This document shows positions 6,941-63,681 of a stretch of 64,000 nucleotides of DNA, piece after piece. Both the position numbers and the translations under genes were made by a program. Source of the stretch: a virus (Duplodnaviria; Caudoviricetes); IMG/VR virus record IMGVR_UViG_3300029267_004155; one strand, 5' to 3'. Each line of letters starts with the position of its first letter. Position 1 is the first letter of the stretch. The notes below the pieces were generated by a model, which saw only the letters and a program-made list of their open reading frames with translations, did not search any database and was not told the origin of the DNA.

Positions 6941-6973
6941 AGCGTTGGTTTGGTAGTGTAAGGGAGTATGGAC

Positions 6974-39174: not shown

Positions 39175-40290
39175 ATGGCGACGGTGACGTGCTACCGGGT
39201 CGAGAGGGACGTGCACGCCTCCCCGTTGGGGGGCATGCTGAGGAAGGGGACCGGCCTGGAGGTCGGTGCCGACTTCGTGAGGGTCGGCGGCCGGGAGATC
39301 GGAGGCGAGCAGGCGGCCTTGTTCGTGGGGAGGCTCCTCGCGAAGACCGACTTCCTGAAGGAGGTGGAGAGGCTGGACGACACGACCCTGGAGGCCGTCT
39401 CCGGGACAAGCGCCGTGTGGCCCGTCCTGGGGTGCCTGAGGGCGGCCGAGAGGTTCGTCGGGGCCGGGACCGGGGCCTGGCTGCCCTCCGACGACAAGCA
39501 GAGGGAGTTCATGGACATCTTCTCCGGGCATATCCCGACCGTGGACGTCCTTGAGGAGCGGGTCGGGTGCCTGGAGAGCCGGGCCGACTCTGACATCGCC
39601 CCGCTCAACCGGTGGCTCAGGGAGCGCGGCTTCACCATCGAGTTGACGGTCGACCCGGGGTCCGAGGGCTTCGCGGTCGCGTCGATCCTGGACGTGCTGT
39701 GCGAGTGGCTGGAGAGGGGGACCCGGAGGACCATCGAGAAGGCCGGGGCCTCCTACGACGCCGTGAGGCTGGATGAGGGTGTGAGCCTGGTCCAGCATCC
39801 GGACCTGCACGACCATCCCGTCGTCCGGATCGCGGCCAAGGGTGGCTACCGCGTCTGCATGACGGTGGCGTCGGGCATGCCGCCGGGGGACTTCGGACTC
39901 CACTCGAAGGTGAGGAGCCTCCGGTTCGCGGACGCCCCGGACTACCGCTACGAGGGCGTCGTCTTCCCGATGGTCTCCTATGACCGGCACGAGGACATCA
40001 GTTTCCTGTGCGGCCTGGTGGTCAGGTCCGGCGGGAAGGGCTGGCACGTGGCCGAGGCGGTTCAGCAGACGAGGTTCCGGATGAACGAGACGGGCGCCAG
40101 GGCCGAGAGCGCGGCGGCCATGAGCTTCAGGTGCTCCGCCGCTGGTGCCGCCCGTCCCCCGTACGTCCTGGACAGGCCCTTCATCCTGTGGATCGAGAGG
40201 GAGGACTTCCCGATCCCGCTGTTCACGGCGGTCTTCGCCGAGGACTCCTGGAAGGACCCGGGCAATCTGGACGACGTGAAGGTGGGGTGA
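39175..40290 (+). CDS. Serpin-like protein (C-terminal two-thirds)
   Basis: QQTRFRMNETGARAESAAAM (s5A/hinge), LDRPFILWI, PLF (serpin signature region). Confidence 0.72.
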   Translation: MATVTCYRVERDVHASPLGGMLRKGTGLEVGADFVRVGGREIGGEQAALFVGRLLAKTDFLKEVERLDDTTLEAVSGTSAVWPVLGCLRAAERFVGAGTGAWLPSDDKQREFMDIFSGHIPTVDVLEERVGCLESRADSDIAPLNRWLRERGFTIELTVDPGSEGFAVASILDVLCEWLERGTRRTIEKAGASYDAVRLDEGVSLVQHPDLHDHPVVRIAAKGGYRVCMTVASGMPPGDFGLHSKVRSLRFADAPDYRYEGVVFPMVSYDRHEDISFLCGLVVRSGGKGWHVAEAVQQTRFRMNETGARAESAAAMSFRCSAAGAARPPYVLDRPFILWIEREDFPIPLFTAVFAEDSWKDPGNLDDVKVG

Positions 40291-40293: not shown

Positions 40294-42050
40294 ATGAACT
40301 GCATGGTGCATACCAAATGCAATCCGGGGACCGAGGTCTGGCGTGCGGCCATGGCCAAGGCTCTGGTCGTCGACCGCGAGGAGATGGACGAGGACGACGA
40401 GGATGCTTTCGAGGAGATGAACGAGAGGCTCGACGAGGCCCAGTTCTGTCCTCTTTGCGTCATCGAGCTGGATGATCGGGCCAGGGCTAATCCGTCTTCG
40501 GTCCTCAAGGTCCAGCTGGAGGCTGCCGAGAACGAGCTCAGGCGCCTCAGGGCGACGAGTGAGAAGAACGCCTCCGTCGTGGCCGCGGTGGTTGGCTTCA
40601 TCAAGGAGGCGACGGGCAAGGACGCCTGCGAGATGGCTTCTCAGAGGCACAAGGGTGGCCAGGGAGACCTTGCCAACATCATTCCCAACCTGCTTCACGA
40701 GGCCGTCCTGAAGAGGGTTCAGGACGGCATGGAGAGGTGTCGGGATCGTGAGAGGGCCGACATCTTGAGGGGGCATGGCTGATGGTCTCGGAGTGCGGCA
40801 AGTGCGAGAGGGCGGCGACGCACGAGTACGGCCATCCGGCGATCTGCCCCGGCTGCGGGGCGGAGCACATGCCGGACGAGTACCTGTCGGCGGTCTCGGT
40901 CTGGGAGCCGAGCACGATTTCCTGCGTGGAGCTGCCGTACAGCTTGACGAACTGGGGCCGGAGGCGGTTCATGGCGGATGCGTCCGCCATTGGCTATCAG
41001 GGCTTTCTCCTGCACCTTCTGGGCGACGGGGTCGTCACGGTCCCGTGGCTTGTCGAGGAAACCAGGTCCGAGTGGTTAGGCGCGCCTTCCGAGATGGCTA
41101 CGAGCAAGGCCGTCTTCTACCTGCCCTCGGGCCATGTGGCCATGATGATCGACGAGTGCGCGAAGCCGTCGCCGATTGGCCCCGGAATCCCGTTCCCGAT
41201 CACGATGCGGGCCAGGCGGAACGGCATCGACATCGCGGTCTACACCAACATGCAGATGGTCTGGAAGGAGGGGAAGGATGCCGGCGGCTGACTTCCCATC
41301 TGGCTGGCCGGTCAGATGCCCGGCCTGCGAGGGCACCTTCGCGTTCAGGTACGTCTCGGACCGGACGGGCAACGTCCGCCGGTACAGGTGCCACAAGTGC
41401 GGGGTCGGGTTCCTGGCGACCTGGAAGGGCAAGCCCATCCGGAGTTGTTTAGCGGAGCCGAGGAACACCAGCATGGAGAAGTGGGACTGGGCACGTATAG
41501 TTGAGGGAAGGGAGCTTCCGCCGGCGGGTGCGCTTCCGGTTCGGGATGAGGCGATCGAGGTGGAGGCTGTGGTGGTCGACGTGCCGGAGATGACTGACGG
41601 GACGCCGGCGGCGAAGGAGTTGGTCGAGCTTTACGGTCCGCGGTTGGCGGGCCTCTTGGAGGAGAGGACATGAGCAAGCTGAGCGAGAGTCTGGCGGCGG
41701 TGCTGGCCGCCGCCAGGGGCGTCGACGAGGAGGCCGAGGCCATCCTGGAGGCCATGGCCTTTCGGGGGTCGGACGTGCTGGAGGCCGTCATGAGGGGGGC
41801 GACGCTTCGCCTGATGGGAGATGGCCAGTCCTTCCCCGCCGCGGAGGCGAACGATTCCGTCCGGTCCTACCAGGTGCTGGTCTTCGACCCGAATGGCGAT
41901 ACTGTCAGGACGGTGGCCGAGGCGGACTCCTGGAAGAGGGGGAGGGAGGGAGATATGTCCTTCTTCCTGAGGGGCCGCAAGGTGGCCTGGTTCGCCCGGG
42001 TGGACCTCTGGCGCGTGATGCCGGAAGAGGACGAAGGGGTGGGGTCATGA
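40294..42050 (+). other. Four coupled hypothetical genes (40294-40782, 40782-41291, 41278-41673, 41670-42050)
   Basis: Overlapping starts/stops. Confidence 0.6.
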
Positions 42051-50001: not shown

Positions 50002-51035
50002 CGGTCGACACGCCAACCGGGCCGGTCGAGGTGCCGGCCAGGGCCATGAGGGCCGTCTGGCAGGGCGACGGCGTCGTGTTCGAGTGCGACGTGTGCAAGA
50101 CGGAGGGGTGGAGCTACTCGAAGAGCAAGACGGACTCGGTCAGGCGGATGGTGGCCCTGGAGGGTTGGCGGTGGGGCTTGAGGGACGTGTACGAGACTCA
50201 TGGGTGGACCTGCGGGGTCTGCTCGGCGCAGCTGACGCAGACGGACGTGAGGGCCGAAGAAGAGGAGATGGCCGATGGGTAGGAAGATGGAGATGGGGTG
50301 GCAGTTCGCGGCCGTGATGATCGTCTTCGTCATGCTGTACGGGGTCGTTAGGGCCCGGATGGACAGGGCTCGGGGCATTACGCCGCTGGGCGAGGAGCCG
50401 AAGGCTGCGGAGGTGGCTGGCGAGATCGAGAAGGAGCCGAATACGCCGTTTCTGATGCCGGTTAGGTTCGAGGTCGTGTCGAACCAGGACATACGGGCCT
50501 GGAGGAGCTTGCCGGTCGGCATCCGGGCCGTCGTGCTGCGGGACGTGGGGACCGGAGTGGAGTACCTCGTCCTGGAGGGCGGTTCGGGCGTCGCCGCAAT
50601 CGAGATCGCCGAAGGAGGAAGATGATGAGCAAGATTAAAGCATTGGAAAGGCGCGTCACGCATCTTGAGAGGCGGATCGCCCACCTGGCCGATGCCAACG
50701 GTCTGAGGACGTTGGAGGAGACCGTCGGATACGAGCCTCCTGAGGAGCCCCAGGGGAGCGAGCCGGTCGAGAAGGTGGAGTCGTACCCGCTCGGCATGTG
50801 CCGGCTCGTCGACGTCACGCTGCCGTCGGGCGAGCGGTTCGGGAATGGCCCTGTGAGCGTCGAGGACAGCCTCTCGGAGGCTCTCGGCCTGCTGGAGCGG
50901 TGTCGGGTCCTCATGGGCCACTCGCCGCCTCTCAGCGACGACGTGAGGGCGTTCCTGGAGGGGCAGGGGGTCCCGGACCATGAGAGCGCCGAGTGGCAGG
51001 AGATGACGACGGGGCACAAGGAGGTCGAGGTATGA
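49998..51035 (+). other. Hypothetical genes 49998-50282, 50275-50625 (N-terminal TM helix), 50622-51035
   Basis: Tiling, RBSs. Confidence 0.55.
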
Positions 51036-51057
51036 AGGCCGAGCTGGAGGAGAGTTG

Positions 51058-51354
51058 ATGGCGGGCAAGGGTGACACGCCGAGGCCGGTGAACAGGGCCA
51101 GGTACGACGAGGGCTATGAGCGGATATTCGGAACCGACGACGAGGTGGCCCGGAGGCGGCGGGCCTCCATGGGGAAGGTTCGAGGTGAGAGGGGGTCTGC
51201 TGTCGTGATGGACGATTTCGCCTTCGTCGACGGGTCGATGGCCGCGGACATGGAGGAGATCGAGCTGGCAGTCGCCAAGGGGTTGCGGCTGCCGATTCAG
51301 TTCCTGGTTGGCGACGACGGGGATGTGAGGACGAGCAAGGAGGAGAAGTTATGA
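51058..51354 (+). CDS. Small mosaic protein (possible terminase- and portal-like segments)
   Basis: GGAGG RBS; KVRGERG..MDDFAFVD; GLRLPIQFL. Confidence 0.6.
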   Translation: MAGKGDTPRPVNRARYDEGYERIFGTDDEVARRRRASMGKVRGERGSAVVMDDFAFVDGSMAADMEEIELAVAKGLRLPIQFLVGDDGDVRTSKEEKL

Positions 51355-53301
51355 AGGTCGGGAACTGGGTCGCGTTGAAGCAGGGCCTTGTCGCGGGAAG
51401 TTCTCCGGGAGCCGAGATCGTGGTGGCCAGGGGCTGCGTCGGGACGGTGATTGATACGGACGCCGGGGTTTTCGGTGGTCCTCCCAAGGTGAGGGTAGCC
51501 TTCGAGGTGGCCAGACAGGCCTTGATCGTGAGGGCCTGGGTCGTGGTTGAGGATGACTTTCTGAAGGACGGAGGGCCGAATGACGCCTTCGACTCGAAGG
51601 CTCGCTACGACAACGGGATGACGTACAGAGAGATGCTGGAGGGCTAGGGGATGGGCGTGTTGTCTGATCTGCTGGTGAGGCACGGGATCGTCCAGGAGGT
51701 GGCGGTCGAGGACCCCGAGGGCTACGACGGAGGTAGGAAAGAGGAGGCCATCGCCAAGGTCGAGGCAGAGCTTGGCGACATGAACGGCAACGCCGTGACC
51801 CTCCATCGCCAGGCGAAGGAGCAGAAGGAGGTTCTGGAGCGGGAGGTCCACCACCTGTCCGGGGCCGTCCTGACGGATTGAGGATGGTCGATGGCGGTGA
51901 TGGCGACGGACGAGGAGATGGCCATGAGATTGGCGAGGACAACATGGCGAAGGAGAAGGTCATGAGGGAGAGCAATGCTGGCAACGCGGCGAGGGCGGCC
52001 TCGCTGGGTGACAGGGTCGTGGAGATGCTTGTGGAGGCCGACGCGACCCGGGAGGAGTCGGGCGCCAGGGTGGCCGAGGCCATGAAGGGGGTCCTGGAGG
52101 GAATCAGGGCGTTCCTGGGGAGCACCTCGCTGGAAGTCGCGCTCGTGAGCGCGACCTGCTGTGACAGGCAGCGCTACGAGATCGTCCTGAGCGGGGAGTC
52201 CCTGGCGTCCAGGCTCTCGCTGGTCCGCGTCAGCATCGACCAGGACGGCGTCGTGATGCTCGGCTACGGCACTCTGATGTCCGGCATGGGCTGGAACAGG
52301 GTCTGGGGCGAGCTGGACGATTCCCTGGCGGACGCGATCCCGGTGGCCGACATCGTCAAGATCAAGAGGGAGTGGGTTCGCTGGAGCGCCCCGGCCACGC
52401 CGAGGGAGCCGGTGACGTGGCCGGTCAGGAGCGTCGAGTTCATGGGGGAGGTGGCTCCGGGGACGTGGAAGATGAGGATAGACGTGGCGGTCGACGGGGA
52501 GGTGAGGGAGGGGGACGTCCTCTCCGTCGTGGCCGGCAACCGCTGGAGGGTCGAGTCCAGCCTGGGCGACGACGTCTTCACCTGCGTGGGGCCCGACCCG
52601 GACCTGCCGCCCCGGGGCGCGCTGGCCGACGGCGACGTCGACGTCGAGGTCGTCAGGTGGTGGGCCAGGCAGATGTCGATGCTCGCCGACTCCTTCGACG
52701 ACAGGCGCAGGAGGAGGAAGTGCCTCAAGGCGGCCAGGCTCATGTTCGAGGTGACGGGGGGACGGGAATGACGAAGGTCGAGATCAGGGACGCGACCCAG
52801 TTCTGCGAGCTCGTCCGGCTGCTGAGGGCCATGGCGGAGCGGGCGGGCCTCGTCGTGCGGCCGTTCGAGACGCCGGCCGAGGGCGTCGTCGGCTACTCGG
52901 TCGTGGCCGACTCGAAGGACGAGCCGCTGCCGGAGGTGGGCGTCTCCTTCAGGGTGGACCGTGAGCTGGATGTCGAGGTGGTCTCCATGGAGCACGCCGG
53001 CCACCTGCCGCCTGGCGAGGTGCTGGTCATGGGCGAGAACGGCCGGCGGAGCGGCCTGGAGAAGCTGATGGAATGCCTGAGGGGGGCCGAGTGGGTGAGG
53101 GCCGACGACGCGAGGAGGCTGCTGGTCGGCTTCGCGAGGCCGGACGGGGACAGGATCGCCGTCAGGCAGTTCAGGTTGATGGAGCTGAAGATGGGTCTGG
53201 CCAGCGAGGGAGTGGGCGCGGAGGTGAACAGGCTGCGGGGCGAGAAGGATGGCGACGGCTTCAGGAAGATGCTCTCGGCCATGGCCGGGGAGGAGCTGTG
53301 A
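51351..53301 (+). other. Hypothetical genes 51351-51647, 51651-51881, 51944-52771, 52768-53301
   Basis: Tiling, RBSs. Confidence 0.55.
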
Positions 53302-53302
53302 C

Positions 53303-53539
53303 ATGGCCGACGGCAGGTCGTTTCTCGCCAGGAGGATGGCCGACGAGGTCGAGTCGAGAGGCGACGCCGTCGTCTGCCGATGCGGGAGGTGCGGCTGGCA
53401 GGGCTACCTGGAGGAGGCCCATGTCGAGCTGGACGAGCAGGTCTTCACGGGATGGCGCTGCCCGAGGTGCTCGGGGCGGGTCGTCCTGGAGAGGGTGCTC
53501 GGAGGCGACGTCCTGGCGGCCGGGGAGGGGACGAGATGA
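53303..53539 (+). CDS. CxxCGWxG Zn-ribbon protein with acidic tag
   Basis: CGRCGWQG..CPRC..GDVLAAGE. Confidence 0.7.
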   Translation: MADGRSFLARRMADEVESRGDAVVCRCGRCGWQGYLEEAHVELDEQVFTGWRCPRCSGRVVLERVLGGDVLAAGEGTR

Positions 53540-53901
53540 CGGTCTTCAAGTGCGGGGCCTGCGGGTGGCGGGGAGACACGAACGACGTCGGGTGGGACCT
53601 GGCCAGGGCGATGCGGGCGTGCGGCGCCTGCGGCTCGACGAGCCTGCGGGTCGTGGCCAGGCTGCCGAGCGGGGACGTGATGGCCGAGGATGAGAACATG
53701 AGGGCGCACGAGGCCGCGGCCAGGGCGGCCTGCGGAACTCCCGACGGGGACGTGATGGGCGTGGACGAGGAAATGAGGATGGGCCTTGCCATTGAGGAGT
53801 CGAGTCGTGGTAGAGATGACAGTAACCCAACACTTGAGGCAACATCTGCTGACCCGTCCCCGAGGAGGGGTGAGGAACGCCCTCCGTCTGCCTCCACTTG
53901 A
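53536..53901 (+). CDS. CxxCGWxG protein interrupted at about 53784 by an insertion
   Basis: CGACGWRG; GDVMAEDE; continuation resumes after second repeat copy. Confidence 0.6.
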   Translation: MTVFKCGACGWRGDTNDVGWDLARAMRACGACGSTSLRVVARLPSGDVMAEDENMRAHEAAARAACGTPDGDVMGVDEEMRMGLAIEESSRGRDDSNPTLEATSADPSPRRGEERPPSAST

Positions 53902-54235
53902 AGATATGCGGGAAAGTCAATGGAGCTCTGAGTTTGAGCAGTTTCAGAGGAACCGGCTCATTTTCGGAGCTCATCGGTATGGAATGGAGTTTGGAAATGC
54001 TTCATATGACTACGTCGGTGCTCTGAGGACTCGCCTTCGTGAGTATGAGGAGACTGGAAATCTCGAGTTCCTTGTTGACGTGGCCAACTACGCGATGCTC
54101 GAGTTCGTGGTTGGAAGGAGACGAGGGAAAGAGATGAGGCCCGTGGATGGAGGAACTCATTGTGGGAAGAAGAACGTCAGGTGAGTTGGAACTCCCGACG
54201 AGGAGATGGGCGTGGACGAGGAGATGAGGATGGGC
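53734..54235 (+). repeat. ~50-bp direct repeats (53734-53784, 54188-54235) flanking the insert
   Basis: GGAACTCCCGACG..GATGGGCGTGGACGAGGA.ATGAGGATGGGC occurs twice. Confidence 0.85.
53816..54184 (+). CDS. Lower-GC inserted phage gene
   Basis: NRL..G..RYG..Y.ETGN.E.LVD.ANY.MLEF; flanked by direct repeats. Confidence 0.7.
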   Translation: MTVTQHLRQHLLTRPRGGVRNALRLPPLEDMRESQWSSEFEQFQRNRLIFGAHRYGMEFGNASYDYVGALRTRLREYEETGNLEFLVDVANYAMLEFVVGRRRGKEMRPVDGGTHCGKKNVR

Positions 54236-54798
54236 AGGGAGTGGGTGCCCGCATGCCACGACTGCGGATGGTGGGGGGTCGACGACGACCTGGCCGGCGA
54301 CAACAACGGGAGCCGGACCCTCTGCCCGAGATGCCTGGGCGGGAACGTCGGGAGGCTGTGGGTCGAGAAGGGCGTCGTCGAGGCGGTGAGCGAGGCCCCG
54401 GACGGCTTCCGCAAGGGCTCCGTCCACGTCCTGGAGAGGACGACGGAGAGGGACGAGCCGCTGAGAAGGGCCTCCGACAACGTTCTCCATGGGGCCGTTC
54501 ACGCAATGGACGAGGAGGCGGACGAGAGCGAAAGGCTGAACAAGGCGTTCGCGGCCGTGGAGGCCCACGACGTCGACGTCAGGTCGGTGATGATCTTCGG
54601 AACCGACGACGAGCGCGACAAGGTCCTTGGCGACCTGAGGGACTTCGGGGGCCGGATGGGGACGTGGCCGTCGAGATAGCCAAGTGGAGAAGGGTCGTGA
54701 CGGGCGACGTCGAGGACGAGAGGATGTACGTCCTGGAGGAGAAGGTCGCCAAGGAGTGGTTCGAGAACGGAGAGGTCGTGGCGTATGATGAGGTGTGA
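54206..54798 (+). pseudogene. Zn ribbon + capsid-like segment; frameshift near 54667 separates tail ending GEVVAYDEV
   Basis: ORF stops at 54679; coding-like tail continues in another frame to 54798. Confidence 0.55.
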
Positions 54799-54827
54799 CG
54801 ACGAAGGCTGAGAATGGAGGACGAGGC

Positions 54828-55061
54828 ATGAGGAGGTACATGGTGACGATGGCCGAGTCGATCGCGATCTCTTACGAGACCGTGGAGGCGGACTACGTCG
54901 AGGTCGAGAATGGCTGCCTGGTCTTCTGCAGGCATGTCGATGACGAGAAGGGAAAGGACGACGTGATCCAGGCCTTCGCCAAGGGGGCGTGGGCCAGGGT
55001 CGAGGAGATCGAGAGTCGAAACGAGGAGAAGAAGGAGACGAGAGATGAAGCACGCGCATGA
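54828..55061 (+). CDS. Hypothetical protein
   Basis: VEAD..G.LVF..AF..G.W. Confidence 0.65.
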   Translation: MRRYMVTMAESIAISYETVEADYVEVENGCLVFCRHVDDEKGKDDVIQAFAKGAWARVEEIESRNEEKKETRDEARA

Positions 55062-55452
55062 GGTGACGGTGGCCCCGATCATGAACGGGGTCCTGGTGAG
55101 GGCCGGATGCAAGACGCTGTTCGCCAAGCCGGAGGACCTGAAGGGCCTCGAGGGCTACTTCGCCAAGGGCGACGCGGCCAAGGTGCCGGCCAGGTTCAAG
55201 CGGTGGGTCAGGGACGGCGAGGCCTTCAGGGGCCCCGAGGGGCCTTGCGCCGAAGAGACGGAGAGCTGCCTCGACATCAAGGAGGGCATGTCGAGGCCGT
55301 CCTTCCTGGACAAGAGCGGAGCCGTGGTCGTCCACAGGATCACCAACGGCTTCGTGGTGGAGTGCGACAGGCAGTGCTGGGGCGTCGAGCCGGGCAAGGA
55401 CGAGAAGCCCGAGGATACCGTTTACGGGCTCCTGGCAGGCGTGCTGTCATGA
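55045..55452 (+). CDS. Paralogue of 46027-46566
   Basis: Shared motifs. Confidence 0.7.
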   Translation: MKHAHEVTVAPIMNGVLVRAGCKTLFAKPEDLKGLEGYFAKGDAAKVPARFKRWVRDGEAFRGPEGPCAEETESCLDIKEGMSRPSFLDKSGAVVVHRITNGFVVECDRQCWGVEPGKDEKPEDTVYGLLAGVLS

Positions 55453-55908
55453 GGTGGAGGGTCATGGCCCCGCTCAGGTTCGTCGGCCTGGCGGTCCGCC
55501 TCAAGGCCGAGGTCCTCGGCCGGGCCGGATGGCGGCGGGTGACGTGCCTTTGGCGCGGCCGGAGGCCGATCGGGCAGGCGGGGCCGGAGGCCGATCGGGC
55601 TCGGCAAGCCCAGGCGCGTTGAGGTTCCGCTGTTCGAGACCGTGGCCTGCCCGGCCATCCGGCTCGATGACGTCAAGGCCAGGCGCCTCGTCCTGTTCGG
55701 CGACGATTCGGACATAGTCTCGCTGGTCAGATGCTCCGAGTGCGGCTGGCTGGGCGAGTCGTGGAGGCTGAGGAGGCTCCCGTTGCGGGCGTGTCCCCGG
55801 AAGCGATGCCCGAGATGCGCGACGGACGAGGTCGGGGCGCTGGTGGCCATGGACCTGGGCGGCACCGACGTGGGCGTCTGGGAGGAGCGGAAGGAGGAGA
55901 CGACATGA
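55449..55908 (+). pseudogene. Capsid-like segment + Zn-ribbon gene frameshifted by a 25-nt duplication
   Basis: GGCCGGAGGCCGATCGGGC at 55557 and 55582; removing one unit restores the frame. Confidence 0.65.
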
Positions 55909-56336
55909 GCAGGCCGCCGCCATGCGACCGGGAGGTCTTCAGGAAGGGCCGGAGCATCATGGCCTGCGACACGGGCACCGCCGAATGCCGGGCGGAGGAC
56001 TTCGAGGCCTGGATCGTCAGCGTCAGGAGAAGGCTGCCGAAGGGCAGCGGGATCGACTGGCACTACTTCGGGGGCGTGGCCAACGTCCTGGCCCTCGGGG
56101 ACCGTGAGGCCGTTCTGGACGCCGTCGGGGGCATGATGTCCTCCTGCCCGGCCAGCGTCATGCGATGGGTGGGGGAGGGCGAGATCGGGCCGCACCGGTC
56201 CGGGGTCACCCCGGCCCCGCAGGGGGCCATGGGCGCGAGCTACGGGCCGGACGGCGGGGAGTTCCTCCTGGAGGGAAGCCGGGCCCCGGAGCCGGGCGAC
56301 GTCGTGGCGGCCGACGACGAGAGGGCCGGGCCGTGA
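55905..56336 (+). CDS. Hypothetical protein with acidic tag
   Basis: DWHYFGG; ends PGDVVAADDE. Confidence 0.7.
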   Translation: MSRPPPCDREVFRKGRSIMACDTGTAECRAEDFEAWIVSVRRRLPKGSGIDWHYFGGVANVLALGDREAVLDAVGGMMSSCPASVMRWVGEGEIGPHRSGVTPAPQGAMGASYGPDGGEFLLEGSRAPEPGDVVAADDERAGP

Positions 56337-57067
56337 TCCTGGCCAGATGCGCCAAGTGCGGGTGGAGGGGGGTCGACGAGCATTGCTCGAAGGAGCTGGT
56401 CGAGTGCCCGAGATGCGGGAGGCCCGTCGTCGGGCTCTCGATCATGTTCGAGCCGGACGTCGTGGCGACGGACGAGACGAAGGACGAGGAGAGGGAGCGG
56501 GACATGAGAGACGGAGGGGACGAGGAGATCGAGGCGGTCTCCATGACGAGGTGCTCCAGATGCAACCACGAGGCCAGCTCGAAGGAGTGGGAAGGGAGCA
56601 AATGCCCGGAGTGCGGCTCCGGGTGCGCGTTGCAGTGGATAGTGGACCACCCCGGGGAGGTCGAGGTGTTCGAGGACGGGGAGGTGGAGGTCTACGAGGA
56701 CGGGGGAGATGAGGTGTGGGGTGAGCGGATCGAGGCCAGAGGCTGGGTCACCATCTGCAACGGGTGCGGGTGGCAGGGGGACTTCGAGAGGGACATGAGG
56801 GAGAGGGGGCCGAGGGGCTGGGAGTGCCCGGAGTGCGGATGGGGAGTCGGGGAGGCCGTCAGGGTGGACGACGGCGAGGTCTGGGCCAGGAAGGAGAGGG
56901 CGGAGGACGCCATGCCGGACGTCGAGGCGTTCCCTGCCGGAGGGACGACCCGGGACCCCTCCTGGGCCGACGTGATGGGGGCCTACGACAGGCTCCTCGA
57001 AGGGAGGGCGAAGGACAGGATGCTCGACGGGGCCGTCCTCGCCGAGCGGGAGAGGAGGGAGCCGTGA
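56333..57067 (+). CDS. Triple Zn-ribbon protein with repeated acidic tags
   Basis: Three CxxC..CPxC pairs each followed by a [DE]V-x-[AV]-x-[DE] segment. Confidence 0.7.
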   Translation: MILARCAKCGWRGVDEHCSKELVECPRCGRPVVGLSIMFEPDVVATDETKDEERERDMRDGGDEEIEAVSMTRCSRCNHEASSKEWEGSKCPECGSGCALQWIVDHPGEVEVFEDGEVEVYEDGGDEVWGERIEARGWVTICNGCGWQGDFERDMRERGPRGWECPECGWGVGEAVRVDDGEVWARKERAEDAMPDVEAFPAGGTTRDPSWADVMGAYDRLLEGRAKDRMLDGAVLAERERREP

Positions 57068-57327
57068 GGCACTACAGGTGCAGATGCGGGAACAGGAAGA
57101 TGTGGGGCTCGATGCCGCCAAGCCCGTGCCAGGGCTGCCCGAAGTGCGGCACCACCATGGCCCATGATCCGGCGAGATGCAAAACGCCGGAGCCGCACGA
57201 CTGGACCACCGAGGAGACCGTCGGGGATGGCGACACCGTCAGGAGAACGACGCGCTGCCGAAGGTGTCATGAGAGGATGGACGACTCGACGGACGTGGTG
57301 GCCGAGGACGAGAAGGTCGAGCCATGA
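57064..57327 (+). CDS. Cys-rich protein with acidic tag
   Basis: Ends DVVAEDEKV. Confidence 0.65.
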   Translation: MRHYRCRCGNRKMWGSMPPSPCQGCPKCGTTMAHDPARCKTPEPHDWTTEETVGDGDTVRRTTRCRRCHERMDDSTDVVAEDEKVEP

Positions 57328-57408
57328 GACAAGTCGGAGTCCAGGGGCCGCAGGGCTGGCCCGAGGAGGCGACGGGGTCGTGGTCGCCTGCTTCGAGGAG
57401 GTGACGAC

Positions 57409-57591
57409 ATGACTGAGGAGTACGTGGTGCTGACGGTCAGTCGCTGCCCGAGATGCGGGTGGGAGCTGTCCAGGCACGTGGTGGAGATGCGGCTTGGGGA
57501 CGTCGTGCTGTTTGACGAGAGGGACGTGGGGGCGCTGGACGAGCAGGGCGACGTCCAGGTGGCGGACGACGAGAGGAGGGAGCCGTGCTGA
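57409..57591 (+). CDS. Small protein with three tag copies
   Basis: GDVVLFDE, DVGALDE, GDVQVADDE. Confidence 0.6.
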   Translation: MTEEYVVLTVSRCPRCGWELSRHVVEMRLGDVVLFDERDVGALDEQGDVQVADDERREPC

Positions 57592-57947
57592 AGACGAACA
57601 AGTGGAGCCTGAACGTGGCCTTCTCCCACGTGGAGAGCATGGACTACTTTGTGGTGGGCGTCCTGGCGAGGGAGCCTCTGGAGTGCGAGGACGGACTCTG
57701 GGAGTCATTCCCGCCGGTGGGGGTGAGCAAGGACGTCGCCAGGTCCGACGACAGGGTGGCCATGATCCTGGTGGGCGTGAGGGACCGCAGCTCCATCGCC
57801 GTGGGCTTCGCTCTCCAGGAGGACGGAGACTGGGAGTGCCTGATGACCGACGAGGAGAAGGACGAGCACCTGCGAGCCTTGAACGCCAAGGCGGAGGCGA
57901 GGATGAAGGCCCCGCCCGACGAGCCGAGGGAGGGGCCGGGGTCATGA
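57585..57947 (+). CDS. Protein with capsid-like segment
   Basis: SLNVAFSHVESMD. Confidence 0.6.
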   Translation: MLKTNKWSLNVAFSHVESMDYFVVGVLAREPLECEDGLWESFPPVGVSKDVARSDDRVAMILVGVRDRSSIAVGFALQEDGDWECLMTDEEKDEHLRALNAKAEARMKAPPDEPREGPGS

Positions 57948-58315
57948 TCCTCGCGAGATGCACCGAATGCGGCTGGCACGGAGTCGACGAGCAGGTCGAC
58001 CAGGTCCTGGTCGCGGCCCCGGACGGAAGCAGGGGGCGACCGTGCCCCGAGTGCGGGCTGCCGAATGTCGCGCTCTCGATCCAGTTCGATGACGAGGGGG
58101 TCGTCGTCGCCACGACCGAGGAGCTGCTGGTGATCGACGGCCTGCCCGGGGTCTCCATCTGCGAGGCCTGCGGATGGGAGGGGGCTCCGTGGGAGCACGA
58201 CCAGTCGACCTGGCCGGCCCGGTGCCCGGCGTGCCACAGGAAGGCGATTGAGAGGACCATCCCGGGGCTCAGGCCCGGGGAGGTCCAGGTTCTCAGGGAG
58301 GAGGCGATGCCATGA
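57944..58315 (+). CDS. Double CxxCGWxG Zn-ribbon protein
   Basis: MILARCTECGW resembles 56333; ends PGEVQVLREE. Confidence 0.7.
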   Translation: MILARCTECGWHGVDEQVDQVLVAAPDGSRGRPCPECGLPNVALSIQFDDEGVVVATTEELLVIDGLPGVSICEACGWEGAPWEHDQSTWPARCPACHRKAIERTIPGLRPGEVQVLREEAMP

Positions 58316-58672
58316 GCAAGATCATGAGGCCGACCTTCCCGCCGATCATGACCTTGCTGACATGCCACAGCCGCGGATGGTCGGGGAATACGGACGAGCA
58401 GGGGACCTTCAAGGATGAAGCGGGAGATAGATGGATGTGCTGTCCGGAATGTAAAAGCGTGACGCTCGGGAGCGAGGCCGTCGAGACGGGCTTCGTCGGA
58501 GTCAGGGACGAGACCATGATGAAGAGACTAACGGCATGGAGATGCAAGAACTGCGGCCGGGAAGGAACCCCCGATCATCTGCCCGAGATGCCAAGGGGAG
58601 AGCTTTGAGAGGGTCGTGGCGAAGGAGGGGGACGTCTGGGCCACTGACGAGAAGATCGGGAGGGCGACGTGA
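58312..58672 (+). pseudogene. Decayed double Zn-ribbon gene
   Basis: CHSRGW (lost Cys); frameshift near 58570; tail CPRC..EGDVWATDEK in another frame. Confidence 0.55.
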
Positions 58673-58942
58673 CAGGAAGGTTCCATAGGAGGTGCCACGA
58701 GCGCGGATGGGACTGCGACGACGCGGACCATGACGAGATCAACGTCCCGGGGCCGTGCCCGAGATGCGGCAAGCTGCTCAGGAGGGGGAGTCCGGAAGGG
58801 CACCGAGAGGACCTTGCGGAACCGGACGAGCCACGGAAGAAGAAGCGAAGCCTACGGCTTCGAGGCGACGACCGGACGACGCCACGAATCGGAAAGGGCC
58901 ATCCTCAGGGACGGCCTCCCGAAGGCCGGAAGCCAGCGAAAT

Positions 58943-59150
58943 GTCGGAGAAAAAAGCGATGCGGCTCTTTCTGGAAATCCACGGATGGCATGGAACGTGC
59001 CCGGGCGTCGTCACGGCAGGACCACCGTCCCGGTGAGGCGTCAAGGAAAAACCGATGGGACTTTTCCTGGAAATTCACGGGCTTGAAAAAACGTCGGGAA
59101 AAAACCGATGCGATTCTTTCTGGAAATTCACGGATGGCATGGAACCTGCC
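58943..59150. repeat. Three imperfect direct repeats (58943-59001, 59040-59080, 59093-59150)
   Basis: AAAAA.CGATG.G..(C)TT..CTGGAAAT.CACGG core. Confidence 0.8.
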
Positions 59151-59311
59151 GTGACGGGGGCCGCGATCGAAGACGATCGAAGACGATCGTTTCGGGAGTG
59201 GGGGGTCCCGTGACCTGGGCTGTGTGCAATGGGCGCACACGTACAGGGGCGCGCATTTATCGTATGGTAGGGGCGTGGACAATTTCCGCATGGCGGGTCT
59301 GGAGGTGAGCG

Positions 59312-59608
59312 ATGAGGTGGTGTCCGGAATGTGGTGGCTCCCGGTTCGAGGGGCGTCGTTGGGAGATAAGGACGGTGGTGGTGGACGGTGACGGCGTTTC
59401 CCTGCCCGGGGATGGCGGCGTCGCGGGCTGGGAGCCGGAGACCCTGACGGTCGGCGTGCACTGGGGCCCGTACGTCTGCCTGGGGTGTGGGCGGAAGACG
59501 GCCGAGCTGGAAGACCTGCCGGAGACGGGCGACGTGCTGGCCGAGGGGGAGGCCGGAGGCCGAAGGGGGCCGGTCCGGAGGCCCCGGAGGCCTCCCGACG
59601 TCGCATAA
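59312..59608 (+). CDS. Zn-ribbon protein with acidic tag
   Basis: CPEC..CLGC..GDVLAEGE; GGAGG RBS. Confidence 0.65.
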   Translation: MRWCPECGGSRFEGRRWEIRTVVVDGDGVSLPGDGGVAGWEPETLTVGVHWGPYVCLGCGRKTAELEDLPETGDVLAEGEAGGRRGPVRRPRRPPDVA

Positions 59609-59626
59609 TATCATATTATGTTTAAT
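59598..59626 (+). other. dif-like XerC/XerD recombination site
   Basis: ACGTCGCATAA-TATCATA-TTATGTTTAAT vs E. coli dif GGTGCGCATAA-TGTATA-TTATGTTAAAT. Confidence 0.75.
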
Positions 59627-60170
59627 TCACGACGGAACTAATTGGACGTTTCGCGTCGCAAACGCGCCTGCCGCAGGTACTTGCGGCTACGAGAAAAAGA
59701 GGGAAATTCGGCATGCAACCTGCTATGGGTTATCAGGGGGGAATCGAGCCTTTTTTTCGCGCTGCTACAAAGAAGGTCGTCGATTGTAACGGTGGACGCC
59801 TGGTGGTGGTGGGCGGGGAGCTGGGCGAGTCCGCGGAGGTGGTGGTCGACGCGTCGGTGGAGGAGCTGAGGGCCGTCAGGGCCGGGGAGGTGGTGGCGGG
59901 TTCGGAGGCCATGGCGCCTGCCGGGGTCCGGGGAGGTGGTCGGCCCGGAGGTCCTGGGGCCTGCGGGGGCCTGCCCGGAGCCCGTCTCAACCGCGTCTCA
60001 ACCCGGCGGGGGCCTCCCGGGAAATAGGACGGCTATCGATCCGGCCTTCCGGGATCGGACCCCGGGGCGCTGTCGCGCGTCGGCGATTTTTTCGGAAATC
60101 CGAAAATCGGGAATTGGCCTTTTCGGGGCTTTCACATGCGCTCGCGTGCGCGTGTGGGGGAGGTGGTCTG

Positions 60171-62250
60171 ATGGGTGAGGTGGTCGAGGGCTACGTGGTC
60201 CACTGGTGCCCGTCCTGTGGACGCCTGTGGGTATGGGAGAGCCGGCGGCTGCCTGACGAGATGGTGGTGTTCGACGTGGTCGAGAGGTGTGACGACGGGG
60301 GTTTCTGCTGGCATGATCGTGACGAGGTGGTTTTGCGGTTCTCTCCTGGGGAGGTCGGGGTTTGGCGCGAGGATGCTGGGTGGCCGGCATCCACAGGGAG
60401 CCGGGGCTGGAGGCGCATGGCGGTCTCCGGTGTCCCGTCTGCGACTTCCGGTTGGCGGGTGGCCACGTCGGGGGTGCCCGGGGTGCGGGGCGAGGCCCTT
60501 TCCCCTGTCGGGACGGGAGGAGTCGGGGGAGGTCGCCTGCTCGGGGAGGTTGAGTTTCTGGGAGGTGGTGGCTGTCTCGGAGGGGGTTGGGGGCGTATAG
60601 TGTCTTGACGGCCGGCGTCTTCATGTGGATGACGGGTTCGTGTCCGACTCGCCGGGCTTGCCGGCCGCGAAGCTGTTGGTCCGTGCGGGTGCTCCTGAGG
60701 GGGCGACGGCGGGCGTCCCCGGTAACGGGCCCTTCCCGCCATTCCTGGAGGTTCGGGTGAGGCTGGTGGGTCACGACGAGAGTTGGTGGGCGTGTCTGTC
60801 GTGCGGTCACGTGGTCCACCGGGTCAGGAGGGGCGCTGTCCGGGACGGCTGCTCCTGCGGGGCTTGCGGGAAGGCGGCCTGGTGGGAGCGGTTCGTGATC
60901 GGCGAGGTGGTCGCCGTCCGCGAGGAGGTGTTCGACGTTCGCGAGGAGGTGTTCGATGGAGAATCTGGTTGACATCTTGACGCGCGGCCTTGCCGAGGTT
61001 CGGGCGGTCCGGGCCTCGGGGGCGGTTCGCGAGTGGGTCTCCGGGGACGTGTCGGTCTCCCTTCTGGAGGTTCCGGACGGGCGGTCCCGCGCCGTGGCGC
61101 GCTCCCCCGATGGCCGGGACGTGCTCGTCCTTCTCTTCGAGGACGCCGGGGCTCTTCGCGAGCTGGTCGAGGGCGTGGTCCGGGAGGCCGGGGCCCTTCG
61201 CGAGCTGGTCGGGGCCGGGGGCGGCACGAGGCTGATGGTCGCCGTCCGGGGGTCTCTGACGGGGCTGGCCCTGGTTGGCGACGGCTGGCGGTGGGCGGCG
61301 GTCGACGGCCCTTGACGGGGCCGTTCCTGCCGCGGGTCGGCGCTTTTCCCGGAGCCGTCCGGCGGGATCGGGCTTTTCACCGTGGGCGAGGAGGCTGGTG
61401 ATGGTTTCGGAGTGCGTGGTCTGGCGTTGCGGGCGTTGCGGGTGGGAGGGCGTGGGTGACGGGAGCTGTCCTGGTTGCGACAGGTCCGGGGCCTTCTGGA
61501 CCGACGACGGCCTCATGCGTCCTCGCGAGGCGGGGTCCTTCGAGGACGGCGAGGTCCTGGCGAGGCACGAGGAGCTGGGGCGGCTCGCCGGATGGATTGT
61601 CTTCAGCTGCCCGGGTTGCGGCTGGGTTGGCCGCGGGGCGCCCACGGAGGTGCTTCCTGACGGCTCCTGGGGGTCCGGGAGGGTTTGCCCCGGGTGTTCG
61701 AGGCTCGGCGTGTCCGAAGAGGGTTACGTGTCCGCGGACGGCCTTGACGTGACGGCGGCGGCGGAGGTGGTTCGGACGAGGTTTCGGGGGCGTGGTGGTC
61801 TGAGAAGAGGAGGTTGTTGATGAGGCGGACGGGTAGGAGCCTGATGGCGTGCGCGTTCTGCGGCGAGCTTCTTCGCGGGAAGGAGCTTGCTCCTCCTGGC
61901 CGGGTGGCCTGGAGGTGCGCGGTGGGGCGTCCGGAGATGGGCGACGGGAGGGAGCTGTGGAGGCCCGCGGCCGACTACCACGGCCTGCGGCTTCCGGCCA
62001 GGTGCTGGCTCCGGAGGGGGGAGGTGGTCTGTGCCGAGGTGTCTTGAGGCGTGCTCCGGGTGCGGGTTCCTGAGCGGGGCGGCGACGGCCTTGGGCGAGA
62101 CGGTGCCTGCTCGCCGTGGTGGTGGACGAGCGCGGCCCGCGGGGGGAGCCGCGGGCTCGTGGTGGGCCGTTCGAGGGCACGGAGCTGCCGGCAGCTCCGT
62201 GCCCGTACTCGACGGGCGAGGTCGGGGCCTTGGACGAGGAGGTTGGATGA
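60171..62250 (+). other. Small, partly decayed Cys-rich genes (60171-60608, 60625-60972, 60956-61315, 61401-61820, 61820-62047, frameshifted about 62030-62250)
   Basis: RBSs, CxxC motifs, acidic tags. Confidence 0.5.
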
Positions 62251-62516
62251 GCGTCACGAAGGAGGGGATCATAGCGAAGGCCCTGTCGACTCCGGAGGGT
62301 CGCCAGGAGCTGGCCCGGGCGATGTGGCCGTACGCCTGCGACGTCTGCGGGCGCTTCCCGATGAACTGGAAGGGTCTCGGGGTGAGGCCGGTGGAGACGT
62401 GCCCGGCGTGTGGCGCCGTCTGGTTCGACGCCGAGAGGAAGTGGGTGCCCGACGGCGACGTTGGGGCTTCGGACGAGGTTTCGGGGGCGTGGTGGTCGGA
62501 GAAGAGGAGGTGCGAC
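62247..62516 (+). CDS. Capsid-N-terminus-like helix + Zn ribbon + tag; no stop, runs in frame into the sulfotransferase
   Basis: GAGGAGG RBS; KEGIIAKALSTPEGRQELARAM. Confidence 0.6.
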
Positions 62517-63194
62517 GTGATAATAGGTGAGAACTTCGCGTGGGGCCACATTCCGAGGACCGGCGGCACCTTGACGGCCTGCCGGTTCGTCGAGGCTGCC
62601 AGGCTGTGCGGCGCGGCCTTGTCGGTGGACGGCGACCTGTCTCATTCCAAGCACGACCCCTTCCCCGCCCGGGCCGTGGAGGGCAAGGTCCTGGTCCTGA
62701 GCGTGCGCAGGCTGCCGTCCCTCTACCTGTCCTGGCTCGTGATGATGTCTGGCAGGCTGCGCCCCGGCGATCCCGTCTGCGGGGACTACGGGGGCGGGGT
62801 GTGGCCCTGCTACGTGCCTCTGCCGACGCCCACCAGGGGCCAGGTGCTCGGGGTCGAGGACTACCGCGTGCGCGACTTCGTGGACGTCTACGGTCCCCTG
62901 CGGTGCTTCCCGGACGCCTATCTCAGGTCCTTCACGGACGACGGGAGGCTGAAGGTGGACCACCACATCCGGCTGGAGTTCCTCGACCGGGATTTCCGGC
63001 GGGTGGCCGTGGCGCTGGGGATGGACTACGACGAGGACGCGTTCCGGCCCGTGGCGCCCGGGGCCAAGGTCGTCTTCTCGTACGACCACGACGTCGCGGG
63101 GTATTTCTCGGAGGGCGACCTGGAGGTCCTGTACGCCAACAACCCCCTGTGGGCCGCGATGGAGGCCGAGGTCTATGGCGGGGTGCCCGGATGA
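62517..63194 (+). CDS. Sulfotransferase family 2-like protein
   Basis: HIPRTGGT PAPS-binding loop, VR..S.Y.SW, IRLE.L..DF; own GAGGAGG RBS. Confidence 0.75.
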   Translation: MIIGENFAWGHIPRTGGTLTACRFVEAARLCGAALSVDGDLSHSKHDPFPARAVEGKVLVLSVRRLPSLYLSWLVMMSGRLRPGDPVCGDYGGGVWPCYVPLPTPTRGQVLGVEDYRVRDFVDVYGPLRCFPDAYLRSFTDDGRLKVDHHIRLEFLDRDFRRVAVALGMDYDEDAFRPVAPGAKVVFSYDHDVAGYFSEGDLEVLYANNPLWAAMEAEVYGGVPG

Positions 63195-63412
63195 GAAGGT
63201 GTCTCGACGCGTGTAGGGGCTGTCGGTTCTGGCGGGCGCGGGTGCGGCTCGGCGCCGACGACCTCTACAGGTGCGTGTGTTTCGTCGTTTCCTTCGGTGG
63301 CGGGGTGATGGCGGAGGACTGGGCCTCTCGGGGCGTCTACGAGGGTCGCCATCTCCCGGCCGGGTGCCTGGCCCTCGGCGATGTTGCGACCGTGGACGAG
63401 GAGCTGTCATGA
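63191..63412 (+). CDS. Cys-rich protein with acidic tag
   Basis: Ends GDVATVDEEL. Confidence 0.6.
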   Translation: MRRCLDACRGCRFWRARVRLGADDLYRCVCFVVSFGGGVMAEDWASRGVYEGRHLPAGCLALGDVATVDEELS

Positions 63413-63681
63413 GCGACGCGGGCCGCTTGACCGCCGACGACCTGAGCGTGGCCTTCGAGAAGATCGAGAGGACGGACGCTCAGGCCGGGGCCGTGACGGT
63501 GGGCGTCGAGGCCTGGGAGGAGCTGGGGAGGATGGGGTCCGACGCCCTGGTGCCCGCGACGGAGGAGGAGCTGTTCAGGAACGGCTTCGTCGGGTCGATC
63601 TGGGGCGCCAACCTGCATGTCTCGTGCCCTCCTGGCGAGGTGATGGCGAGTGACGAGGTGATCGAGAGGCGTATGGTGTGA
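63409..63681 (+). CDS. 90-aa protein resembling an isolated major capsid protein A-domain segment
   Basis: LT.DDL..AFEKIE..D..AT.EEL..G.VGSIWGANLHVS. Confidence 0.65.
   Translation: MSDAGRLTADDLSVAFEKIERTDAQAGAVTVGVEAWEELGRMGSDALVPATEEELFRNGFVGSIWGANLHVSCPPGEVMASDEVIERRMV

Follow-up and report, generated by a model that had tools for sequence, protein, structure and literature searches.

Segments related to a phage-G-type major capsid protein in small accessory genes of a high-GC giant phage

Introduction

Few phage proteins are as strongly conserved as capsid proteins, and bacterial immune sensors are now known to recognise them. The vertex protein gp24 of phage T4 and the capsid-size protein Ccm of SaPIbov5 are specialised full-length paralogues of the major capsid protein (MCP); they retain the complete HK97 fold and become part of shells. 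A short MCP segment can likewise serve as a specific recognition surface, as in the case of the T4 Gol peptide (Lit) and of CapRelSJ46. The CTS of T4 internal proteins and the cargo-loading peptides (CLP) of encapsulins are capsid-targeting peptides. T4-type mobile regulatory cassettes are an example of modular shuffling in hyperplastic regions, in which the units are whole genes with promoters. Within the HK97 fold, the N-arm, the E-loop and the A-domain are inter-subunit contact elements.

The DNA considered here, hereafter the window, is a stretch of 64,000 nucleotides from the virus record IMGVR_UViG_3300029267_004155 (Caudoviricetes). Like gp24 and Ccm, its small proteins discussed below are capsid-protein-derived accessory proteins, and the known ones act via capsid contacts, which is putative here; unlike gp24 and Ccm, they contain sub-domains only, on unrelated carriers. 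In Gol/Lit, CapRelSJ46 and Avs, the segment lies within a real MCP and is read by the host, whereas this phage encodes separate pieces. Small proteins with no other relationship share a short terminal peptide (about 17 copies at 50–64 kb), as with the T4 CTS and the encapsulin CLP, but the peptide here differs in sequence, being acidic and C-terminal. With the T4-type cassettes, the locus shares small-ORF arrays rebuilt by recombination at short repeats carrying ribosome sites; it differs in that sub-domain pieces of a structural gene enter coding frames. To our knowledge, and according to our searches, no arrangement of separate capsid sub-domain pieces on small carriers has been described.

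The reference capsid protein family and the window-wide scan

The original prediction started from a large-phage MCP consensus. This consensus is genuine and is that of the phage G gp27 family (PDB 6WKK, chain 6wkk_A; Pfam PF25209, Phage_capsid_4; HK97 fold). Identity to phage G gp27 is at least 74% across the best 120 family matches, which include many huge-phage contigs. Twenty MCPs of this family were the reference for profile–profile comparison with hhalign, and an MCP HMM scan covered all 1269 ORFs in the six frames of the window.

No intact MCP is present in the 64-kb window. MCP residues 115–149 and 229–282 were found neither there nor in the next 58 kb, and no further MCP piece was found in these 58 kb downstream. 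The window had no DNA match among GenBank phages, and no relative was found in IMG/VR. A search with a high-GC codon pattern for an invariant MCP motif retrieved 78 metagenome MCP loci, none of which was from the samples of this phage.

The three top-ranking ORFs of the HMM scan were P0001 (E 4.5e-9), the frame at 55543–55905, hereafter the 55543 frame (E 2.5e-5), and the 62247 ORF (E 0.059). With hhalign, these three match three different MCP segments, namely residues 150–228, 73–114 and 8–46, respectively, and 6wkk_A is the best PDB match for the first two. The motif AF..[VI]E..D, which consists of MCP-invariant residues, occurs at exactly three sites in the six frames of the 64 kb, compared to a mean of 0.07 in shuffled sequences. 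The sites fall in the 63409 (P0001), 54206 and 57585 ORFs, in which the original prediction had noticed a common motif, and their number is beyond chance. All five peptides it had named are present on the + strand at their positions, in frames with coding-type GC3. The coordinates are collected in Table 1.

Table 1. Capsid protein-like pieces of the window and associated features
Feature	Coordinates (nt)	Strand	Evidence
Zn-ribbon ORF, weak candidate	41290–41673	+	hhalign, HMM
Zn-ribbon ORF with LNKAF piece	54206–54679	+	hhalign (marginal), motif
Zn-ribbon gene with E-loop/P-domain-like piece	55464–55908	+	hhalign, HMM, PDB, strain alignment
36-nt tandem repeat encoding RGRRPIGxGKxR, aligned to the MCP E-loop tip	55557–55610	+	strain alignment
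120-aa ORF with LNVAFSHVESMD at nt 57609–57644, without Zn ribbon or tag	57585–57947	+	motif only
315-aa ORF with MCP-like N-terminal helix	62247–63194	+	hhalign, HMM, identity to MCPs
73-aa Cys-rich ORF ending in the tag GDVATVDEE	63191–63412	+	BLASTP to P0002
P0001, 90-aa "mini A-domain"	63409–63681	+	hhalign, HMM, PDB, PHROG

Judged by these comparisons, three ORFs evidently derive from a phage-G-type MCP (PF25209, HK97 fold) and have diverged from it while staying in frame. The claim that MCP pieces lie inside small accessory ORFs thus holds at profile level for these three; it is marginal for the 54206 ORF and holds at motif level only for the 57585 ORF. The further claim, fusion of most pieces to a Zn ribbon or to the acidic tag, is correct for four of the five, the exception being the 57585 ORF. 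The pieces all lie on the sense strand and in frame, with good ribosome sites (Shine–Dalgarno sequences 5–6 nt before the starts) and a GC3 of 0.77–0.91, and are clustered at 41–64 kb.

Each ORF spans one MCP segment only, and none contains the whole ~280-aa chain of N-arm, E-loop, P-domain and A-domain. Because the other segments are missing, these ORFs are not capsid proteins. What they share with the phage G gp27-type MCP is the segment-wise homology and, in low-confidence models of P0001, the secondary-structure order of the A-domain and capsid proteins as nearest structures. In contrast to the MCP, a shell subunit of ~280 residues, the pieces are 20–77 residues long and located in separate small ORFs, where they are joined to Zn ribbons, an acidic tail or an enzyme-like domain. 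Their overall identity to MCPs is 26–44% (calculated against the MCPs of other phages), well below the at least 74% within the family. Pfam gave no capsid family match at E ≤1 for any of the five ORFs, and the curated score was not reached. Rfam gave nothing in the 50–64 kb region or in split MCP loci.

The A-domain gene P0001 and its Cys-rich partner

Residues 3–79 of P0001 (nt 63415–63645) are homologous to MCP 150–228 and are followed by the tail CPPGEVMASDEV; in the hhalign alignment, the tail is colinear with MCP 223–228. The match to the MCP profile has a probability of 96.5% and an E-value of 9.3e-10 over 77 columns. P0001 also matches 6wkk_A (E 1.5e-4) and PHROG 2522, a major head protein (E 3.4e-4), and it keeps 12 of the 27 MCP-invariant residues. 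Its ATG overlaps the preceding stop codon (ATGA coupling), and GAGGAG is located 6 nt upstream.

Two independent low-confidence models of P0001, both built without capsid sequences, point to the fold of a capsid A-domain. The AF2 model (pLDDT 51) has the order helix–strand–helix–strand–helix–hairpin, which is the secondary-structure order of the A-domain. With this low-confidence model, 19 of the 20 top Foldseek rows were HK97-fold capsids, none of them significant (best E 0.43). The nearest structures of the ESM Atlas model, likewise of low confidence (pLDDT 0.47), were capsid clusters, with TM-scores of 0.65–0.69 by query. The assignment of the 63409 ORF to the A-domain is therefore backed by two low-confidence models whose nearest structures are capsid proteins, while no Foldseek row reached significance.

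The Cys-rich ORF directly upstream aligns with residues 2–83 of P0002, a protein of another phage (BLASTP; 30% identity, E 4e-6). Residues 93–168 of P0002 match the MCP HMM (E 9e-13), which means that in that phage the Cys-rich partner and the A-domain piece are fused as a single protein. By these alignments, P0001 and the upstream Cys-rich ORF are to be regarded as a conserved unit.

Besides P0002, the A-domain piece occurs in P0003 and P0007, each on a different contig (GC 52–63% where measured). The contig of P0007 is 464 kb long, and the other two are short. P0001, P0002 and P0007 retain 12–13 of the 27 MCP-invariant residues. The alignment of the family has one short gap at about 70% divergence, and the family has its own conserved tail, SCPPGEV. 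The original prediction had conceded that pieces absent from relatives, untranscribed and evolving neutrally would be debris; this does not apply to P0001, which has relatives in three contigs with almost no indels. We infer that selection has maintained the P0001 family in several contigs, of which at least one belongs to another giant phage. One capsid piece is a conserved gene family of its own. An exhaustive phmmer search with P0001 among 1.8 billion proteins returned no full MCP at E ≤1e-3; P0001 therefore did not arise by recent copying of any MCP. With tblastn, P0001 had no useful match among GenBank phages.

The E-loop and N-helix pieces

The MCP-like stretch of the 55543 frame (nt 55573–55698) corresponds to MCP 73–114. 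The hhalign comparison with the MCP profile gave a probability of 85% and an E-value of 6.6e-6, and the match to 6wkk_A has an E-value of 0.065. Other strains have intact versions of this gene, P0128 (151 aa) and P0129 (168 aa), whereas in the window copy a frameshift separates the ATG at 55464 (frame 0) from the 55543 frame. The copy number of the 36-nt tandem repeat varies among the strains, and the window copy is short by 11 nt. The piece originally placed at 55603–55686 does match the MCP, but the peptide encoded by 55603–55641 precedes any ATG, GTG or TTG start in the window. No conserved relatives of the 55543 piece were found beyond strain variants of this phage species.

The N-terminal helix of the 62247 ORF (nt 62256–62387, core 62256–62324) resembles MCP 8–46, with an hhalign probability of 83% and an E-value of 8.7e-6 against the MCP profile. 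Its core shares 59–68% identity with MCPs across 22 aa. The helix is followed by a CxxC...CxxC ribbon, the tag DGDVGASDEV and an enzyme-like domain of ~230 aa, which has its own AGGAGG and a GTG start at 62517. Just one distant homologue was found, P0131 (238 aa), which consists of the C-terminal domain alone, without the N-helix, and the N-helix piece has no conserved relatives outside this phage species.

Weak candidates

Residues 109–129 of the 54206 ORF (nt 54530–54592, ERLNKAFAAVEAHDVDVRSVM) resemble MCP 157–177, with an hhalign E-value of 0.008–0.013 and a probability of 5% over 21 columns. The corresponding frame, 54185, ranked fifth in the HMM scan (E 1.1). In strains L004 and L005, this ORF encodes 197 aa with the C-terminal tag; in the window it is shortened by a 1-nt indel in the G run at 54658. 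A single-sequence AF2 model has helix–strand–helix at residues 107–151 and, with a pLDDT of 47, is too poor for a fold search. For the 57585 ORF, hhalign gave nothing at the motif, the 57516 frame was within the noise of the HMM scan, and BLASTP against MCPs yielded an E-value of 0.34 in the correct register. An HMM of the fragment family placed neither the 54206 nor the 57585 ORF above noise.

A sixth weak candidate, the 41290 ORF, was newly found and lies outside the range given in the original prediction. Its nt 41440–41580 resemble MCP 27–73, with LP.GALPV.D in common (hhalign E 9e-4, probability 23%; HMM E 0.33, rank 4 of 1269). The GC3 of its frame is 0.83.

Possible origins and roles of the pieces

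It is tentatively favoured here, ahead of recombination debris, that the pieces act as putative docking handles mimicking capsid contacts. Recombination would have built MCP pieces into small CxxCGW zinc-ribbon accessory genes, which form a local array in a high-GC giant phage. Each piece would represent an MCP element in contact with an adjacent subunit or with the scaffold in HK97-type shells, namely the N-arm helix, the E-loop strand and the A-domain. Because the pieces correspond to contact-making parts, the small proteins may bind the phage's own capsid protein or its assembly intermediates, and, once bound, they could bring along a Zn ribbon or an enzyme-like domain, or modulate assembly. 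A combination of handle and payload is favoured because different MCP pieces sit on different payloads, and because the enzyme-like domain of the 62247 ORF occurs handle-free in P0131 and has an internal start. The C-terminal tag on about 17 neighbouring proteins, described below, fits the same logic. If the pieces dock on the capsid protein, this would be a natural route for targeting cargo or enzymes to giant-phage heads. However, mimicry of an interface is uncertain because of the low overall identity to MCPs, the N-helix core being the closest. Docking is further weakened by the lack of conserved relatives of the 55543 and 62247 pieces outside the species and by the statistical weakness of the 54206, 57585 and 41290 pieces. 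The 55543 and 54206 genes, frameshifted in the window strain but not in others, are dispensable or in flux.

Recombination debris is an only slightly less probable explanation. A duplicated or foreign copy of an MCP would have broken up in a hyperplastic accessory region, and its remnants, joined to neighbouring ORFs by illegitimate or repeat-mediated recombination, would mostly be drifting, with any function not tied to their capsid origin. The region is indeed rich in short DNA repeats, among them a 62-nt repeat (61753–61814 and 62450–62511, 89% identical) that is read in two different frames. The strain variation of the 36-nt VNTR and the two frameshifts of the window strain (E-loop gene; tail of the 54206 ORF) fit this origin, as do the shortness of the pieces, their lack of colinearity and the confinement of the E-loop and N-helix pieces to strain variants; moreover, long open frames are cheap at high GC. 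Against it stands the P0001 family, which in three further contigs has kept core MCP residues and its own tail almost without indels, together with its conserved fusion or synteny with the Cys-rich partner. The sense-strand, in-frame position of the pieces behind good ribosome sites also speaks against debris, and under random capture one would not expect a single ~850-nt gene to contribute three to six pieces to 23 kb of a genome of at least 298 kb. On a cautious reading, a stand-alone, selectable A-domain module shows how parts of the HK97 fold can be exapted.

It seems improbable that the pieces are a tiled set of mimics of the phage's own conserved MCP (N-arm, P-domain strand, E-loop and A-domain) on zinc-ribbon carriers, serving as putative immunity decoys or inhibitors or as poisons against rivals. 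If they do act on host sensors or rival phages, a new principle of counter-defence or exclusion from structural-protein fragments would be at hand.

Still less probable is the putative use of the pieces as defence decoys or inhibitors, by which MCP epitopes would be shown to capsid-recognising host sensors (CapRel, Lit/Gol, Avs-type), blunting or mistiming them. Bacterial sensors of MCP folds are established, CapRelSJ46 and Lit/Gol being examples that recognise the MCP. A preprint reports that Avs proteins recognise conserved core folds of MCPs. The pieces are found among clustered small accessory genes, where counter-defence genes usually reside, and the strong conservation of the MCP family makes it a plausible immune target. 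Known sensors, however, are activated by MCP binding, and triggering, not blocking, would be the expected effect of a mimic unless its binding is non-productive. The pieces are also far more diverged from MCPs than MCPs are among themselves, which fits faithful epitope mimicry badly. The literature searched gave no description of phage-encoded MCP fragments or decoys, and the Avs preprint describes no such decoy.

Lower again in probability is putative interference, in which the pieces would act as dominant-negative caps when co-infecting phages with the same MCP family assemble capsomers or shells, a form of superinfection exclusion. One poison could hit many rivals, since the family is common to many huge-phage contigs, and the pieces come from contact elements between subunits. 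On the other hand, self-poisoning would follow if the phage's own MCP belongs to that family, and pieces as diverged as these speak against tight interface mimicry.

A chance resemblance of short peptides to the capsid consensus, to which the missing profile support of the 57585 piece and the marginal 54206 and 41290 pieces would point, is very improbable overall and can be kept for the 57585 piece alone, as it is refuted for P0001, the 55543 frame and the 62247 ORF by E-values of 9e-10 to 9e-6 at the top ranks of the window, by the excess of motif sites, and by the capsid neighbours of the low-confidence P0001 models.

Zinc ribbons and the shared tag

The translated 54206, 55543, 62247 and 41290 ORFs, like neighbouring ORFs, show two CxxC pairs about 12–25 residues apart; Pfam Zn-ribbon models match these ORFs only below their thresholds. 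A "terminase/portal mosaic" considered at 51058–51354 was rejected, as it had no PHROG match at E ≤1.

The tag pattern G-[DE]-V-x-A-x-[DE]-E has 20 matches on the + strand, 17 of them at 50–64 kb, and two on the minus strand. The 17 are mostly located within 10 codons of a stop, and the C-terminal tag peptide is common to about 17 neighbouring proteins. A derivation of the tag from the MCP is unsupported, since a PSSM of the tag scores the MCP no better than shuffled MCP (p 0.53), although the P0001 tail aligns colinearly with the MCP. Within the repeat families compared, the tag copies differ at synonymous sites, and a shared C-terminal tag with such differences points to a common destination of the tagged proteins.

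Capsid-like segments in small ORFs

The capsid consensus given in the original prediction proved to be that of the phage G gp27 type, a major capsid protein (MCP) with the HK97 fold. P0001, the 90-aa product of the ORF at 63409-63681, matches 6wkk_A in the PDB ("Gp27 major capsid protein"; E 1.5e-4, residues 152-219) and PHROG 2522 ("major head protein"; E 3.4e-4), and 6wkk_A is likewise the best PDB match of the 55543 frame. A search with gp27 from the phage G record returned 2591 proteins; the best 120 share at least 74% identity with gp27, and every one of them carries PF25209 or PF05065. Twenty of gp27's relatives form alignment A1, the reference for the hhalign and HMM tests. The PF25209 MCP gene itself lies in two pieces, 0.9-1 kb apart, in contigs of other huge phages (L071, L046), and no Rfam intron was detected at these loci. 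Insertions into this capsid gene appear to be recurrent.

Features of the window and of related loci (L004, L005: same phage, other assemblies; L046, L071: other huge-phage contigs; L090: downstream of the window)
Feature	Coordinates	MCP or HMM positions	Observation
P0001 ORF	63409-63681 (+)	MCP 150-228	hhalign against A1: probability 96.5%, E 9.3e-10, 77 columns
55543 frame	55543-55905	MCP 73-114	hhalign against A1: probability 85%, E 6.6e-6
62247 ORF		MCP 8-46	hhalign against A1: probability 83%, E 8.7e-6
54206 ORF		MCP 157-177	hhalign against A1: E 0.008, 21 columns
57585 ORF			hhalign against A1: motif without a match
41290 ORF, weak candidate	41290-41673 (segment 41440-41580)	MCP 27-73	hhalign E 9e-4
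Split MCP gene	L071 444-743 and 1676-2407	HMM 2-59 and 49-280	
Split MCP gene	L046 2531-2758 and 1032-1550	HMM 52-124 and 125-276	
36-nt in-frame tandem repeat (RGRRPIGxGKxR)	window 55557-55610; L004 2130-2200; L005 2130-2240		copy number differs between same-phage assemblies
62-nt direct repeat	61753-61814 and 62450-62511		89% identical
Symfoil-like stretch	57771-57878		57585 ORF residues 63-98
Zinc-ribbon modules	53200-61800		at least 12 in 9 kb; several per ORF (e.g. 56165-57067)
~53-nt repeat	58949-59150		three copies
Matrixin-like genes	4090-6102 and 6968-8971		~670-aa paralogues with matrixin (M10) zinc-protease core
Serpin-like gene	39040-40290		416 aa; weak serpin match at C-terminus
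GDP-mannose-dehydratase/epimerase-like gene	11117-13831		Pfam match in two stretches flanking a ~350-aa insert
Second intein gene	L090 11847-14423		858 aa; intein with LAGLIDADG

When the A1 HMM was run on the 1269 six-frame ORFs of the window, P0001 (E 4.5e-9), the 55543 frame (2.5e-5) and the 62247 ORF (0.059) took ranks 1 to 3, followed by a new candidate at 41149-41670 (E 0.33) and the 54185 frame, which holds the 54206 ORF (E 1.1). The 57516 frame, which holds the 57585 ORF, was within noise, and no intact MCP was found among these ORFs. Blastp against 104 MCPs agrees with the register originally proposed for all five pieces (E 6e-11, 3e-7, 1e-4, 0.007 and 0.34). The pattern AF..[VI]E..D, composed of MCP-invariant residues, occurs at exactly three sites in the six frames of the window (0.07 in shuffles), each in an ORF of the original prediction and each with a leucine three residues upstream, a count that supports the two weak LN.AF pieces in the 54206 and 57585 ORFs. 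The true gene frame of the rank-4 ORF (41290-41673; GC3 0.83) encodes a Zn-ribbon protein and may, as a weak candidate, hold a sixth piece; a scan of 58 kb downstream of the window yielded no further piece. The proposal that small ORFs carry capsid pieces stands as real for three pieces, with another two or three plausible, and the pieces cluster in a single block of Zn-ribbon genes. Since each ORF carries just one MCP segment, none of them is itself a capsid protein.

The P0001 family

An exhaustive phmmer search of 1.8 billion representative proteins with P0001 yielded three real relatives and no more: P0002 (176 aa), P0003 (68 aa) and the 218-aa P0007, which comes from a 464-kb contig. No full MCP reached E 1e-3 in this search. 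P0001 belongs to a gene family and is not an isolated case. Both P0002 and P0007 align with positions 147-229 of the MCP HMM (E 9e-13 and 3e-9). Of the 27 residues within 150-219 that are invariant among MCPs, P0001, P0002 and P0007 each retain 12-13, with a common core of L154, F163, E167, D170, T198, G206, G209, W212 and A214. The ending SCPPGEV(M/L) is conserved and the family's own. P0001 has diverged from MCPs by about 70%, and its alignment with them over 77 columns contains one gap, two residues long; this single gap at such divergence, together with the retained core residues, argues that the reading frame has been under selection. The start of P0001 overlaps (ATGA) a 73-aa Cys-rich ORF whose product can be aligned with the first 83 residues of P0002 (E 4e-6); in a contig of 52% GC, the counterpart of these two window genes is thus a single fused protein.

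An AF2 model of P0001 based solely on the four family members is of low quality (pLDDT 51), with its elements in A-domain order. In a Foldseek search with this model, 19 of the 20 top rows are HK97-fold capsids, none of them significant. The nearest structures to the ESM Atlas's own, low-confidence model of P0001 are capsid clusters (TM 0.65-0.69 by query).

Carrier genes, repeats and the acidic tag

The 55543 gene is broken in the window, where the MCP-like peptide starts upstream of any start codon and the 36-nt repeat carries an out-of-frame 11-nt deletion. Three other assemblies have 11 nt more in the tandem repeat, or 11 plus 36 nt more, which brings the peptide into frame with the ATG at 55464; the encoded proteins are 151 and 168 aa long and carry the RGRRPIGxGKxR repeat two or three times. 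The homologues found elsewhere are strain variants only. The differences in this repeat could reflect contingency-like variation or assembly error. The 54206 ORF encodes 157 aa in the window and 197 aa, with the acidic C-terminal tag, in L004 and L005; the G run at 54658 differs by 1 nt, and this sets the length. The 62247 ORF combines the MCP-like helix with a Zn ribbon, the tag, a linker and a domain of ~230 aa, which has its own AGGAGG and GTG at 62517 and whose only distant homologue begins exactly at the domain. Ribosome sites are good at all start codons. The Symfoil-like stretch of the 57585 ORF, 36 residues long, resembles one repeat of designed beta-trefoil proteins at only ~10 bits per stretch; the three-fold symmetry of the target inflates the summed E of 6.5e-7.

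Short repeats abound in the region. The 62-nt repeat contains tag-linker codons and an AGGAGG site; its first copy spans a gene junction in another frame and its second lies inside the 315-aa ORF at 62247, and it looks like a recombination scar grafting modules. Recombination clearly both makes and breaks carrier genes. The paralogous CxxCGW...CPxC zinc-ribbon modules represent a single family of small proteins that has expanded locally. Each copy of the ~53-nt repeat, in an apparently non-coding, lower-GC gap, holds TGGCATGGAAC(G/C)TGC, a candidate match to the GG-N10-GC spacing of sigma-54 (-24/-12) promoters.

The tag pattern G-[DE]-V-x-[AV]-x-[DE]-[DE] matches 20 sites on the plus strand and two on the minus strand; of the 20, 17 lie at 50-64 kb, mostly directly before a stop codon. 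Its copies vary at synonymous positions in the repeat families examined, which suggests a peptide signal and not a ribosome site alone. Derivation of the tag from the MCP is not supported, as the tag PSSM scores the MCP no better than shuffled MCP (p 0.53).

Possible functions of the pieces

The reading ranked first, if tentatively, is that the pieces dock on the phage's own capsid protein or on assembly partners, since the pattern of a handle with varied payloads, and the common tag, fit it. Next comes the somewhat doubtful view that they are recombination debris, to which the frameshifts in carrier genes, the 36-nt VNTR and two pieces without relatives all point, but against which the P0001 family speaks. 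The two remaining readings, that the pieces act as decoys against capsid-sensing immunity and, in last place, that they interfere with rival phages, are improbable; both lose weight because the pieces share little sequence identity with MCPs that are very conserved among themselves.

Genomic setting

The window has a GC content of ~65% and a strongly positive GC skew throughout, and its coding-type GC3 frames are almost all on the plus strand. No DNA match to it was found among GenBank phages. Five or more metagenome assemblies contain its DNA at 99.4-100% identity, among them an ENA contig of 298 kb and a JGI contig of 113 kb; the source is an uncultured giant phage recurring across several samples. 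ORF 51007-51351 had no PHROG match at E 1 or better. The larger genes encode a class-V aminotransferase, two matrixin-like proteins, a GT10-like protein, a serpin-like protein, an intein-split GDP-mannose-dehydratase-like protein, an RmlD-like reductase and methyltransferases. The matrixin paralogues and the serpin-like protein are unusual phage cargo. The insert in the dehydratase-like gene shows a weak Intein_splicing match, and the second intein lies ~28 kb beyond the window end.
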